A stretch of DNA of 51,214 bases from Candidatus Thorarchaeota archaeon SMTZ1-45 (GTDB lineage Archaea; Asgardarchaeota; Thorarchaeia; Thorarchaeales; Thorarchaeaceae), in NCBI GenBank assembly GCA_001563335.1, contig LRSL01000072.1, forward strand, positions 1 to 51,214, in the 5' to 3' direction. Shown here piece after piece: positions 2,993 through 45,933 of this stretch (position 1 is the first letter of the stretch; every line of letters begins with the position of its first letter). A program made the translations under genes and the position numbers. A model generated the notes under the pieces. The model was not told where the DNA came from. It saw only the letters and a list, made by a program, of their open reading frames with translations, and ran no database searches.

Positions 2993-3394
2993 GTGCTCAC
3001 ACTGAGTATTGTAGACCATATTGCTTCACTACTTGATTCGGTGGATATAAAGTACACACGCGAAGACAATGTCTTGATGATGAGGTGGAAGACTGACCAT
3101 TTCGAGGATTTGAAAATCAAGATTGTCACTAACAAAGACGAGTCATGGGCTTACATTGTTGCACCATTCACGAACTTCTATGAAGTGGAAGAAACCAAGA
3201 GAATGAAACTTGCATACGACATGTTGAAAGAATCTTGGAAAGCAAATGGTGTGAAGTTCGCTATTGATGATGACGATGATATCATTGTAATCGCAGAAAC
3301 CAATGATACAGATCTGACCGGAGAGGAAGTAAGAACTCTCGTTGGTCATGTTGTACATGCCTGTGACACTTTATGGGAAATCTATCCTGCATGA
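2993..3394 (+). CDS. YbjN-domain (sensory transduction regulator / T3S chaperone-like fold) protein
   Basis: 133 aa acidic protein, ...LAYDMLKESWKANGVKFAIDDDDDIIVIAETNDTDLTGEEVR... matches the YbjN pattern. Start may be CTG at 3002. Confidence 0.65.
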   Translation: MLTLSIVDHIASLLDSVDIKYTREDNVLMMRWKTDHFEDLKIKIVTNKDESWAYIVAPFTNFYEVEETKRMKLAYDMLKESWKANGVKFAIDDDDDIIVIAETNDTDLTGEEVRTLVGHVVHACDTLWEIYPA

Positions 3395-43063: not shown

Positions 43064-43348
43064 TTATCGAGCAGGAGCTGATTTTCTAGCTCTAGTGTCT
43101 CGAATGTGAACCTTCCCTGAATGAACCGCACAACTAACGCAATAGTATGAGGTGACTCTGTGTACAGGGATGTAGGCTCCACTTTGCCGAAGCTCTCTTG
43201 CAATCTGTGGTTCTACTGAACTTACACTCTTTGTGTATTTCTTTGCTTTATCTGCGGGAACAATTCGTCCGCATCTTGAGCATTGAACGCCGCCTTTGTG
43301 ACCAGCGCCGCCTTTAGCTCGACCTGCTGATTTTCGTTTCTTTGCCAA
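43064..43348 (-). CDS. rps26e: Small-subunit ribosomal protein eS26 (S26e)
   Basis: KKRKSAGRAK, VQCSRCGRIVPADKAKK, YCVSCAVH..KVHIR. Confidence 0.95.
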   Translation of the reverse strand: MAKKRKSAGRAKGGAGHKGGVQCSRCGRIVPADKAKKYTKSVSSVEPQIARELRQSGAYIPVHRVTSYYCVSCAVHSGKVHIRDTRARKSAPAR

Positions 43349-43529
43349 TCGTTAAAATATTCCACCTTGGTTTGTGGCCTACATGCTCTCACACATATGA
43401 GCTTAAAGCCTTGTGGTTAAGTTCAACCATATTAAAAAAAAATGATGCATTCTTTCAATTGGCCAACGAAAAAATCTCTTTCCTTTGATTCCTACCCACT
43501 AGATTGCAGATATAATTGAATTTCAATAG

Positions 43530-43675
43530 AAACGTGTGAGACCCGGAAAAGACGAAACCATAATTTTCCAACACGAGAATGGATGCACTGAATACGAGAA
43601 AGCTGTGGATTGTGAGCTTCAATGCGAGATACCTATGCCTTTTCCGGGTCCGGGCTAGAAGACCTAACCACGTGC
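43530..43675 (-). ncRNA. Putative structured non-coding RNA of unknown class
   Basis: Nested stems, each with mismatches that become G-U pairs only on the minus strand; TATA-like TTATATT at 43702-43696. Confidence 0.55.
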
Positions 43676-43865
43676 TAAAATCAAAAATAAGTTTGAATAT
43701 AAGGTGTCGTTTCGTAGCAACTATATTCAATAGATTTATTTAGTCTATTTTTTCGGTCCGTGACTCCTCTAATGACATCTGTGAAAGTAATCATGTACCT
43801 AAATGATTAGAAAACATATAAACTGACTATTTTCGAACCTCAATTCTGCAGATATAGTGATTGCA

Positions 43866-44744
43866 TTATTCTTCTTTCATACAAGCATGGGACTGGAGAT
43901 TATCCGCCTTACTTCTGATCACAGATATTGGCATTGCTTTTGCATTCGTAGAATATCCAAAATTACCTTCCTTATCTGCAACAATGATACCTGCTTCACT
44001 TCCGGTTTTTCTCTCAAACATATCCATTCCTTTCTGGGCGGCTGACATGACATCAAGACCATCTTCTACATAGAGAACTACCATCCTACTTAGGACTACT
44101 CTCATGATATGTTCACCCCATCCGGTTGCAGAAGCCCCGCATATATCATTTGCATAAGCACCAGCTCCCATAACTGGTGAATCCCCTACTCTGCCAGGGA
44201 GTTTCTTGGCAATTCCTCCGGTTGATGATGTAGCAGCAATATGACCATTAGCATCCACAGTTATGCAACCCACTGTATCACCAACGGGAGATATGTAAGG
44301 AATTTCGATTTCTCCAGCTTGAATCTCTCGGCGGTAACCGTCCTGTATCATCCTATCATACAATTTCTTTGCATTATCACCTGCAAAGAAGTTGAAATCT
44401 GTTTTTTCCATGATATACCGAGCTAGAGAGATCGGATTTTGAATTCCAGTGATTGCTCCGACAGACCCAAACTGAAGATTGATGCCATCAACAATCATCG
44501 CATCAAGCTCGCGAATTCCATCAAGATTAGGTCGAGCTCCTTTTCCAGCATTTAAATTGCCACTGTTCTCCATAAAGAGAGTGCATACTTCGGCTGCATC
44601 GACTGCAGAACCTCCTGAGCTGAGAACATCAAATCCTGCTCTAGCAGCTTTTTCTACATACTCAATGCCAACAGGAATTCTGTCGTCTTTCCAAGCACCA
44701 GCTCCACCATGTACAATGATCATTGGTAGTTTCATCTGGACCAC
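43866..44744 (-). CDS. Isoaspartyl peptidase / L-asparaginase (Ntn hydrolase)
   Basis: IIVHGGAG, NAGKGA, ELDAMIVDG, NPISLAR, GDTVG autocleavage site, STGG, GRVGDSP, SATGWGE. Confidence 0.93.
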   Translation of the reverse strand: MVQMKLPMIIVHGGAGAWKDDRIPVGIEYVEKAARAGFDVLSSGGSAVDAAEVCTLFMENSGNLNAGKGARPNLDGIRELDAMIVDGINLQFGSVGAITGIQNPISLARYIMEKTDFNFFAGDNAKKLYDRMIQDGYRREIQAGEIEIPYISPVGDTVGCITVDANGHIAATSSTGGIAKKLPGRVGDSPVMGAGAYANDICGASATGWGEHIMRVVLSRMVVLYVEDGLDVMSAAQKGMDMFERKTGSEAGIIVADKEGNFGYSTNAKAMPISVIRSKADNLQSHACMKEE

Positions 44745-44814: not shown

Positions 44815-45303
44815 TTAATAGTCCAATTCAAGACCCTGTCTTGGATCACTCCTACCTCCATGCAAGCTGTTCTTCAATCCTTGATATTCATGTTCAGACA
44901 TACCAATCTCTCCTGTGGCAATAACACGAACATGAATAGGCATATCATGCGTGAAAGTGATGCTATACTCAACCTTCTTTGGTTTGAGACAGAAGAGATA
45001 GACAGCAATCACTTCAACAACAACGACTATGCCAATGTATAGAAAGACTCCAAAAATTGCTAAAAAAGGTGAAGCCATCATAATCAAGAACAAGAGAGGT
45101 ATGCCAATTAGTAGGGCAATACATGGGTAGAAACACAACCGCATGTCATGTTTCGCTTTTGTCAAGACTATGTGACGTTCAGATATCACTTCCATAATGT
45201 AATCTTTGCCAAGATAGGATGCATTCCACGACTTAACTCCATACTTGATATCTTCCATCGTGTAATTCTCTGGCACACTGAATTCATCACTAAACGATGA
45301 CAC
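44815..45303 (-). CDS. Two-TM hypothetical protein (paralog of 45335..45856)
   Basis: DEFSVPENYTMEDIK..VKSW...YIMEV.SERHIVLTKAKHDMR shared with its neighbour; GGAGG SD. Confidence 0.8.
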   Translation of the reverse strand: MSSFSDEFSVPENYTMEDIKYGVKSWNASYLGKDYIMEVISERHIVLTKAKHDMRLCFYPCIALLIGIPLLFLIMMASPFLAIFGVFLYIGIVVVVEVIAVYLFCLKPKKVEYSITFTHDMPIHVRVIATGEIGMSEHEYQGLKNSLHGGRSDPRQGLELDY

Positions 45304-45334: not shown

Positions 45335-45856
45335 CTAGAATTCAAGAGATGGCCCTCCATGACCAGGTTCCCTATGAATGGAATTTCTAAGAGAAAAGTA
45401 TTCATGGGCGGATTTTTCTAACTCACCAGATCTCAAAATAGACACCTTGATTGGAATCTCATTTCCAATCCTCATCTCGATTACTGCTTTCTGAGGTCTT
45501 AGACAGAAAATAGCAACAAAAATCACCATGATCATCATAACAATACCCATTGCTAGAATCATGGCGTTCATTAATGCATAATAATCATAGATTCCCACTG
45601 TTCCAATGACTATCATAACAACCAAGATTATACTGGCACAGGTTGTGATACAACCAACACAGCACACTCTCATATCATGTTTCGACTTTGAAAGAATAAT
45701 ATGCCGTTCATGAACGACTTCCATAACATATTCTGAACCCATAGGAGACGCTAACCAGGACTTGACTCTGGACTTGATATCCTCCATCGAATAATTATCA
45801 GGTAAAGTGAGTTCATCATGAATCTTTGCTGGACTTGTCCCCTCATATTCGTACAT
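45335..45856 (-). CDS. Two-TM hypothetical protein (paralog of 44815..45303)
   Basis: DELTLPDNYSMEDIKSRVKSW...YVMEVVHERHIILSKSKHDMR. Confidence 0.8.
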   Translation of the reverse strand: MYEYEGTSPAKIHDELTLPDNYSMEDIKSRVKSWLASPMGSEYVMEVVHERHIILSKSKHDMRVCCVGCITTCASIILVVMIVIGTVGIYDYYALMNAMILAMGIVMMIMVIFVAIFCLRPQKAVIEMRIGNEIPIKVSILRSGELEKSAHEYFSLRNSIHREPGHGGPSLEF

Positions 45857-45933
45857 CCTCAATACCTCACGAATAATATCATTCTGACATTGGTGTTCAG
45901 CTATTAATCTTATTCGGCCTAATGATTGAATAT

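Follow-up and report, generated by a model that had tools for sequence, protein, structure and literature searches.

What is encoded on the minus strand of the spacer between an asparaginase gene and the ribosomal protein gene rps26e in Candidatus Thorarchaeota archaeon SMTZ1-45? The window, that is the whole stretch of 51,214 nucleotides (nt) analysed here (contig LRSL01000072.1 of assembly GCA_001563335.1, positions 1 to 51,214), had received a first-pass annotation made from the sequence alone, in which an unannotated structured RNA was proposed at 43530-43702, upstream of rps26e. The genome of the window is coded G000 and is 87.7% complete; other genomes carry G codes, and contigs or loci L codes. 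The minus strand of positions 43530-43720 was read directly, and the helix coordinates are those of the minimum free energy (MFE) fold. The minus strand at approximately 43673-43531 very probably holds a real stand-alone non-coding RNA gene of ~140 nt, whose parts and upstream elements are as follows.

43531..43673, minus strand: the RNA gene, ~140 nt, covariance model (CM) match at 43529-43679 with 158.9 bits; start and end predicted
43653..43669, minus strand: P1, the 5' hairpin GGUUAG/CUAGCC (43669-43664 with 43658-43653), loop of 4-6 nt; 6 pairs, covariation
43637..43650, minus strand: P2, 5' strand of the long closing stem, GACCCGGAAAAGGC; MFE fold, covariation
43540..43553, minus strand: P2, 3' strand, GUCUUUUCCGGGUC; MFE fold, covariation
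43629..43634, minus strand: P3, 5' junction strand of a short helix, pairs with 43556-43561; MFE fold and per-sequence folds
43585..43625, minus strand: P4, nearly invariant module of 41 nt; invariant alignment columns
43567..43583, minus strand: P5, variable hairpin UCCA (43583-43580)/UGGA (43570-43567) with the loop UUCUCGUGU; MFE fold
43693..43704, minus strand: TATA box region CCTTATATTCAA (TTATATT at 43702-43696), nearly invariant as CCTTWTATTCA in relatives
43711..43719, minus strand: upstream motif TGCTACGAA, conserved as TGCTAYGAA in a 20-locus alignment and also in the divergent G025 and G017

The closing stem P2, GACCCGGAAAAGGC/GUCUUUUCCGGGUC, comprises 14 base pairs (bp), one of them a G-U pair, and joins 43650-43637 with 43553-43540. 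In P4 the outer helix is formed by GCAUUGAA (43625-43618) with UUCAGUGC (43592-43585), given in the MFE fold as GCAUUGA/UCAGUGC (43625-43619 with 43591-43585), and the inner helix by AGCU (43618-43615) with AGCU (43604-43601), the first A being common to the outer helix. The apical loop of the module is CACAAUCCAC (43614-43605), and its 3' bulge, UUCUCGUA (43600-43593), includes UUUCUC.

All the stems and motifs listed by the first-pass annotation are present on direct reading of the minus strand, among them the 14-bp stem, TTATATT and the pentamer UCUCG, which occurs three times (43629-43625, 43599-43595, and 43578-43574). Not all of them belong to the family. ACGUG/CACGU, suggested as a possible closing helix, pairs in G000 and is not kept in relatives, where the 3' tail varies. 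CAUAG/UUAUG, described as a continuation of the long stem, is found in G000 only and reuses C43637 of that stem, while relatives pair GGAAU with AUUCU and the like. The proposal of a multivalent, sponge-like RNA with three UCUCG sites falls with the conservation of the pentamer, since one copy is family-wide (that of the P4 bulge, as UUUCUC) and the other two are not kept beyond the closest relatives.

The two strands differ in their folding. The minus strand has an MFE of -48.6 kcal/mol (z -2.93), with 1 of 200 shuffles equally good, and the plus strand -38.4 kcal/mol (z -0.31), with 74 of 200 shuffles equally good; the RNA-sense strand is the lower one in 25 of 31 full-length distinct relatives (mean -50.6 vs. 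-45.2), and G-U pairs are found on one strand only. This asymmetry favours the minus strand and was therefore counted in support of a real RNA gene. A coding frame is ruled out by the indels of 1-3 nt among relatives and by the varying length of P5.

The fold is further backed by covariation, proposed earlier as a check for this locus. From 17 sequences RNAalifold predicts a structure of 28 pairs and compensatory changes in 7. For the pair count, 54 model matches, 35 of them distinct, were aligned to the CM; in this alignment, which leans towards the model, 96.5% of the cells of the 35 distinct sequences pair vs. 91.8% in shuffles, and changes on both sides occur in 15 of the 28 pairs vs. 3.7 expected. 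None of five pairing measures was reached in any of the shuffles (0/500), and when the partners are slid by 1-3 columns, the pairing falls to 25.8-45.3%. Four helices are backed in this way. The best supported is P2, whose outer 9 pairs include 8 compensatory ones, with 97.2% of the cells paired; G025 has a different pair at each of the 14 positions of this stem (CCCGAGGCAGACAG/CUGUCUGCUUCGGG). In P1, 98.0% of the cells are paired and two of the six pairs have changed on both sides, and the loop is a GNRA-type tetraloop in many relatives. Strand asymmetry and covariation together bear out the idea of an unannotated, structured non-coding RNA under selection at the RNA level.

The two helices of the junction are more variable. 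In relatives P3 appears as GGAAU/AUUCU, UGAAUC/GAUUCA or CGAA/UUCG, and per-sequence folds give at least six inter-strand pairs between the junction strands (the P2 extension and the short P3) in 32 of 32 sequences. Its energy is no better than that of shuffles (z about 0) in the sequences closest to the window, and most of the longer variants have z from -2 to -4, so that by these folding models P3 is weakly supported in the RNA of the window and better in longer variants. At the place of P5, a hairpin with 4 bp or more is formed by 28 of the 32 full-length distinct sequences, although its letters are unrelated between subgroups.

P2, P3, and P5 have been rewritten in the family, but in the P4 module the loop, the UUUCUC bulge and most of the paired letters remain constant. 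The loop, of the family form CACAAUCCAY and 10-12 nt long, is unchanged in 33 of the 35 distinct sequences, G025 having a single substitution in it. A pseudoknot of the loop with the strand 3' of P5 is conceivable by eye, the invariant loop offering no covariation for it. In the outer helix, 5 sequences have A-U in place of G-C and 6 have U-A in place of U-G; the U-G wobble is kept in 24 of the 35. Species with only 75-86% identity between their thioredoxin proteins share the whole 41-nt hairpin without a single difference.

The RNA gene appears to have its own promoter, as first proposed from TTATATT. CCTTWTATTCA lies ~25 nt ahead of the conserved start of the RNA in the 20-locus alignment, and the region resembles the T/A-rich boxes ~30 nt upstream of the tRNA genes of G000. 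From the distance to this box the transcript is predicted to start at ~43673. Its end would lie at ~43531, in a GUUUC run 9 nt past P2; the tail 3' of the closing stem is variable in relatives and has a short T run. The upstream motif TGCTACGAA is possibly a transcription factor site, judging from its conservation. In G024, G015, and G007 (L025-L027) TGCTAYGAA stands upstream of the TATA box as a tandem of three with a 12-nt period, in TGCTAYGAAAAA-like units which look like a multimeric factor site. A search for a regulon gave 100 TGCTAYGAA sites in G000, with a TATA box following the 9-mer at the RNA and at one tRNA-Thr-like gene alone, at a different spacing; the motif is missing from the tRNA, RNase P, signal recognition particle (SRP), and 5S promoters of this genome. 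The tRNA-Thr(UGU)-like gene just mentioned, at G000:C69 ~142380-142452 on the minus strand, is not listed by ARAGORN and is preceded by TGCTACGAA and a TATA-like box.

The gene is present in a single copy and is confined to one genus. In G000 blastn gives one full-length copy, and the CM one at E up to 10; dispersed copies, which would have pointed to a miniature inverted-repeat transposable element (MITE), were thus not found. By blastn the element is present in 19 of the 27 other genomes of the genus, and nothing under E 0.01 was obtained in 33 genomes outside it. The covariance model R1, built from 17 sequences, detects the element in 20 of these 27 genomes (genus g1), whereas the 15 other genera of the family, represented by 58 genomes, give none (86 family genomes searched); with G010, whose contig starts inside the gene, the combined count is 21 of 27. 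One match in G103, at 18.2 bits, sits in an apparent coding sequence and was taken as chance. Across the class (87 genomes) and the phylum, the latter sampled evenly with 151 genomes from 52 genera, matches of the CM were obtained in genus g1 alone. An independent pattern drawn from P1 and P2 occurs once per genome in 17 of the 86 family genomes, every one of genus g1. The exact pattern of the P4 core, searched among one genome each of 185,579 species, matched 17 stretches, recorded as Candidatus Thorarchaeota (14), Promethearchaeota (2), and 'uncultured archaeon' (1), and there were no matches in viral contigs. The same pattern was found in 20 metagenome contigs, of which 18 fit the model. 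The remaining two, the related contigs L078 (240-261) and L089 (229-250), share a 26-nt string almost letter for letter with the P4 loop and bulge, but nothing else of the RNA. The string lies in C/A-rich sequence without clear genes and was taken as chance, though the coincidence is a long one.

Six genomes of the genus lack the RNA. Five of them also lack the neighbouring thioredoxin gene at E 1e-20, and the locus is therefore probably unassembled there. In G011 (91% complete) the RNA is deleted: the asparaginase stop codon is followed by 6 nt, by CTCGGGTCACAC, a remnant of the P2 3' strand, and then by the 3' end of the thioredoxin gene (L115, G011:C113), an arrangement read from the sequence as a secondary deletion. 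In other genera asparaginase and thioredoxin converge with a spacer holding no such RNA in 11 of 27 readable loci, and the other 16 have another gene beside thioredoxin. According to the searches of range and synteny, it was thus the ancestor of the genus that gained the gene, which arose or was inserted between two genes converging at this place. In 28 loci read for a non-homologous RNA in the asparaginase-thioredoxin spacer of other genera, the spacers are mostly short; some, in L145, L146, and L149, are 100-230 nt long and have inverted repeats, which may be terminators or unrelated small RNAs.

In G000 the RNA is flanked upstream by Asparaginase_2 and downstream by the gene for ribosomal protein S26e, both on the same strand, followed by an opposite-strand thioredoxin gene and an EamA transporter gene. 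The product of rps26e matches Pfam S26e with 70.2 bits, and the RNA lies 241 nt upstream of the gene (tblastn). When 35 distinct loci are compared over up to 1.5 kb on each side, asparaginase is found upstream in 17, and the next gene downstream is a convergent thioredoxin gene in 31, mostly ~3-30 nt from the end of the RNA model, which leaves no downstream gene for the RNA to lead. Together with the single copy, this arrangement argues that the RNA is a stand-alone, trans-acting one. In loci without rps26e, ~15-25 nt separate the 3' end of the RNA from the thioredoxin stop codon. In G026 and G004 a surface-protein gene of 1.2 kb intervenes. rps26e follows the RNA in two of the 35 loci (G000 and G027), with a third, partial case in G010, and in 3 of the 20 loci of an earlier comparison; a TTTAAG promoter-like stretch between the RNA and rps26e is common to G000 and G027 and begins in G027 ~20 nt past the closing stem. 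Farther off in the window, two adjacent minus-strand open reading frames, 44815-45303 and 45335-45862, encode similar membrane-looking proteins of 162 and 175 amino acids; Pfam has no match for the 162-amino-acid one.

Evidence for a transcript comes from environmental RNA. A small fraction of the sequence words of the stretch searched was present in six metatranscriptome runs, and four of these, under four study codes (three from wetland in the same year and possibly from one campaign), were aligned to 43300-43900 (601 nt). In all four, contigs of relatives (>80% alike) cover only ~43549-43641; since the flanks differ between species, the uncovered parts of the region carry no meaning. Five of six contigs are 79-193 nt long. 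One, of 164 nt, has loose ends, whose outer letters look like Illumina adapter remnants, around an insert of ~138 nt running from three letters into P1 to 9 nt past the closing stem, and this insert fits, weakly to moderately, a discrete small RNA. A discrete transcript is thus hinted at by contigs of relatives.

No known family accounts for the element. Rfam 15 gives no match in the whole window at the gathering score, and with E up to 10 there are five weak matches in 43300-43900, none of which overlaps 43530-43702; ARAGORN finds no tRNA in the window. The RNAs of the SRP, RNase P, and 5S rRNA are encoded elsewhere in the genome, at C24:47149-47457 (85.5 bits), C11:6966-7304 (168.5 bits), and C36:19597-19715 (58.3 bits), respectively. 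The earlier judgement that the RNA is not a tRNA, 5S, SRP, RNase P or C/D guide RNA therefore holds. A C/D box sRNA was also rejected by eye, neither a C nor a D box being seen, and no C/D family matches the element. In H/ACA guides an ACA (ANA) box stands just 3' of the lower stem; UCACACG follows P2 in G000, but relatives have UCUUCCCUCC, UCGCACUCU, UCACAUUUU, and others at this place. In the test for a guide pocket, which covered the conserved unpaired segments of P4, the best duplexes with 23S and 16S rRNA of three relatives each are within the shuffled range. G000 yields no match to TROVE/Ro (PF05731), the protein partner of Y RNAs, and no RVT_1 as expected for a retron or other reverse transcriptase (RT) template, in a genome that is incomplete; there is no RVT_1 among the neighbours either. 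Full-text searches of the literature, supplements excluded, returned no description of such a small RNA in Asgard archaea or Thorarchaeota. The RNA forms a new family of a known general kind, that of stand-alone structured small RNAs. Two observations were made in passing: the SRP RNA of G000 is full length on the archaeal model at a score below the Rfam gathering value (85.5 vs. 96.5 bits), and in the spacer between the RNA and rps26e, at 43438-43490 on the plus strand, there is a match to the C/D sR9 family (16.6 bits, E 1.5, gathering 36), which is probably due to chance.

What does this RNA do? We infer a trans-acting RNA with P4 as its functional site and a protein as its partner. The gene would be transcribed on the minus strand from its own TATA promoter and would end at a short run of U directly after the closing stem; the transcript would fold into the 5' hairpin P1 and a P2 of 14-17 bp, continued by P3 and leading to a three-way junction that carries P4 and P5. 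P1, P2, P3, and P5 would serve as a scaffold and P4 as the recognition surface, to which a protein would bind, the RNA serving a small ribonucleoprotein (RNP) either as its RNA component or as a decoy. This proposal is tentative and falls somewhat short of an even chance, the judgement applying to the whole statement with the protein partner included. P4 is taken as the functional site because its loop, bulge, and most paired letters are invariant while the scaffold has been rewritten.

Complementary targets were sought for the unpaired parts of P4. Long complements of its loop or bulge in G000 do not occur beyond chance: the 13-nt complement of the loop has two genomic matches with one mismatch each, and the 11-nt complement of the bulge a single perfect site outside its own locus, in an apparent coding region. 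Duplexes with 23S rRNA, with 16S rRNA and its 400-nt flanks, and with 32 tRNAs, SRP RNA, RNase P RNA, and 5S rRNA are all within the shuffled range. G-U-tolerant 10-mers number 2,683 genome-wide and 388 near crude starts and are uninformative. Crudely called start regions of one genome, 2,808 in all, give 160 duplexes at -18 kcal/mol or lower vs. 51-220 for 12 shuffled seeds, the real seed being equalled by 2 of the 12 at -18 kcal/mol and by 4 of the 12 at -20. Three further observations concern the rRNA genes of the genus: 16S and 23S are not adjacent, there being no 16S within several kb of three 23S genes (G014:C2, G001:C17, and G012:C34); the 16S match at G014:C73:13812-16104 is 2,293 nt long vs. 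a model of 1,478 positions; and the 23S match at G009:C21:17991-21852 is 3,862 nt long vs. ~3,080-3,110 in others, the last two suggesting insertions.

Several readings confine the RNA to its locus or assign it to something already known. That it is a cis-acting leader or riboregulator of rps26e, as the first-pass annotation had offered for control of eS26, is suggested in G000 by the ribosomal protein gene that follows it on the same strand, as such genes follow their mRNA leaders; the position is kept in only two of the 35 loci, so that the idea is contradicted by synteny, and the RNA has its own promoter and its own U run, with the promoter-like stretch of rps26e in G027 beginning shortly after P2. 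The RNA is thus not a leader of rps26e: as the comparison of loci reads, insertion has placed that gene ahead of thioredoxin, next to the RNA, in a few species, and control of rps26e in cis is barely credible. The convergent thioredoxin gene offers another role in cis, in which P2 and the U run would end both transcripts, or the 3' untranslated region of thioredoxin would overlap the RNA as an antisense partner. The closeness of the thioredoxin stop codon to the 3' limit of the RNA model, seen in most of the 31 loci, speaks for it, as does G011, which retains just the P2 3' remnant beside thioredoxin; it is nevertheless improbable, as the two genes can be separated by insertions (rps26e in G000 and G027, the surface-protein gene in G026 and G004), other genera converge asparaginase and thioredoxin with no such RNA, and termination needs neither the promoter nor P1, P4, and P5. 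A divergent member of a known family (H/ACA or C/D guide, SRP, RNase P, 5S, tRNA-like or Y RNA) is very unlikely in view of the negative searches described above. The ACA after the closing stem of G000 and the long terminal helix recall H/ACA guides, which also share the succession of stem, internal loop, and upper stem; two junction hairpins stand here in place of one upper stem, the ACA is not conserved, and complementarity to 16S and 23S rRNA does not exceed that of shuffles. Y RNAs (bound by Ro60) and vault RNAs are alike in size (~100-150 nt), in the long closing stem around an internal conserved module, and probably in being abundant, stable transcripts, and differ in that here an extra 5' hairpin stands outside the closing stem, Rfam gives no match, and no TROVE protein was found in G000. 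Just as improbable is an RNA that serves a mobile or defence enzyme as template or guide (a retron, another RT or a TnpB-type nuclease), or a mere DNA inverted repeat of the MITE kind. The terminal inverted repeat does resemble retron a1/a2 sequences or transposon ends, and the 3' tail is variable, but the element is single-copy and fixed in a syntenic position in the genus, no RVT_1 was found in G000, no gene of this kind in the neighbourhood and no match in viral contigs, the G-U pairs are confined to one strand, and the tail of the RNA-library contig is only 9 nt long.

A base-pairing riboregulator, in which the P4 loop CACAAUCCAC and the CU-rich bulge UUUCUC would be seeds for several mRNAs, e.g. 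at purine-rich ribosome-binding sites, and the rest a scaffold, is almost as likely as the reading with a protein partner. Its own promoter and the upstream, sometimes tandem, motif suggest regulated expression, its range is one genus with loss in G011 and alteration in G017, the invariant stretches are unpaired, and purine-rich start regions give many G-U-tolerant matches to the bulge. Archaeal trans-acting sRNAs, such as Methanosarcina sRNA154 and sRNA162 and Haloferax SHOxi, are similar in being stand-alone genes of 100-200 nt with their own promoter, conserved unpaired stretches, a narrow range, and dispensability in some relatives; here, in contrast, the whole 41-nt hairpin is conserved and not the seed alone, and the closing stem and three-way junction are more elaborate. 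No target stands out in the genome complement search, the duplexes in start regions are not clearly above those of shuffled seeds, and conservation of sequence goes well beyond the loops. Because the letters of the helices and the U-G wobble are conserved, the fold is elaborate, with GNRA-type loops on P1 in many members, and no signal of a target was obtained, a protein is favoured over pairing with mRNA, and the balance tips slightly to a protein rather than an antisense partner. The proposal of a protein bound to P4 is weakened in turn by a number of points. A narrow range and dispensability, the latter following from the loss read in the sequence of G011, are met with in regulatory sRNAs more often than in core RNP RNAs; G017 has a degenerate P4; as single strands rich in pyrimidines, the invariant loops would also suit pairing with purine-rich ribosome-binding sites, and the counts in start regions neither support nor exclude pairing by short seeds (7-9 nt). 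No RNA-binding gene is linked to the locus, whose neighbours are asparaginase, thioredoxin, the EamA transporter, and beta-helix surface proteins. The metatranscriptome contigs come from relatives and show neither strand nor level, and one 871-nt contig of an RNA library runs into both flanks, which may reflect DNA carry-over or read-through.

The conservation of the RNA also has a practical side. Contigs of at least five assemblies break inside the gene (the end of G002:C70 and the start of G002:C16, the starts of G020:C402, G010:C182, and L064, and the end of L069 with the start of L077). A core of ~70 nt is identical between co-occurring species, and assembly graphs probably fork at this core as they do at rRNA genes, so that an ultra-conserved core breaks the metagenome assemblies of co-occurring Thorarchaeota.

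Asgard archaea are the prokaryotes closest to eukaryotes, and their small-RNA repertoire is little known. The RNA described here is a well-supported candidate for it, with a fold, a promoter, a clear phyletic birth, and a natural loss, and its invariant 41-nt P4 module is a ready bait for the partner. It is rather unlikely, a long shot, that Asgard archaea have evolved a novel small RNP with P4 as its core, or that P4 is a ligand-binding or catalytic RNA of Asgard origin; if it were so, the RNA would belong to an RNA-protein machine with no Rfam counterpart, which originated in the lineage nearest to eukaryotes and whose abundance allows its assembly from environmental RNA.

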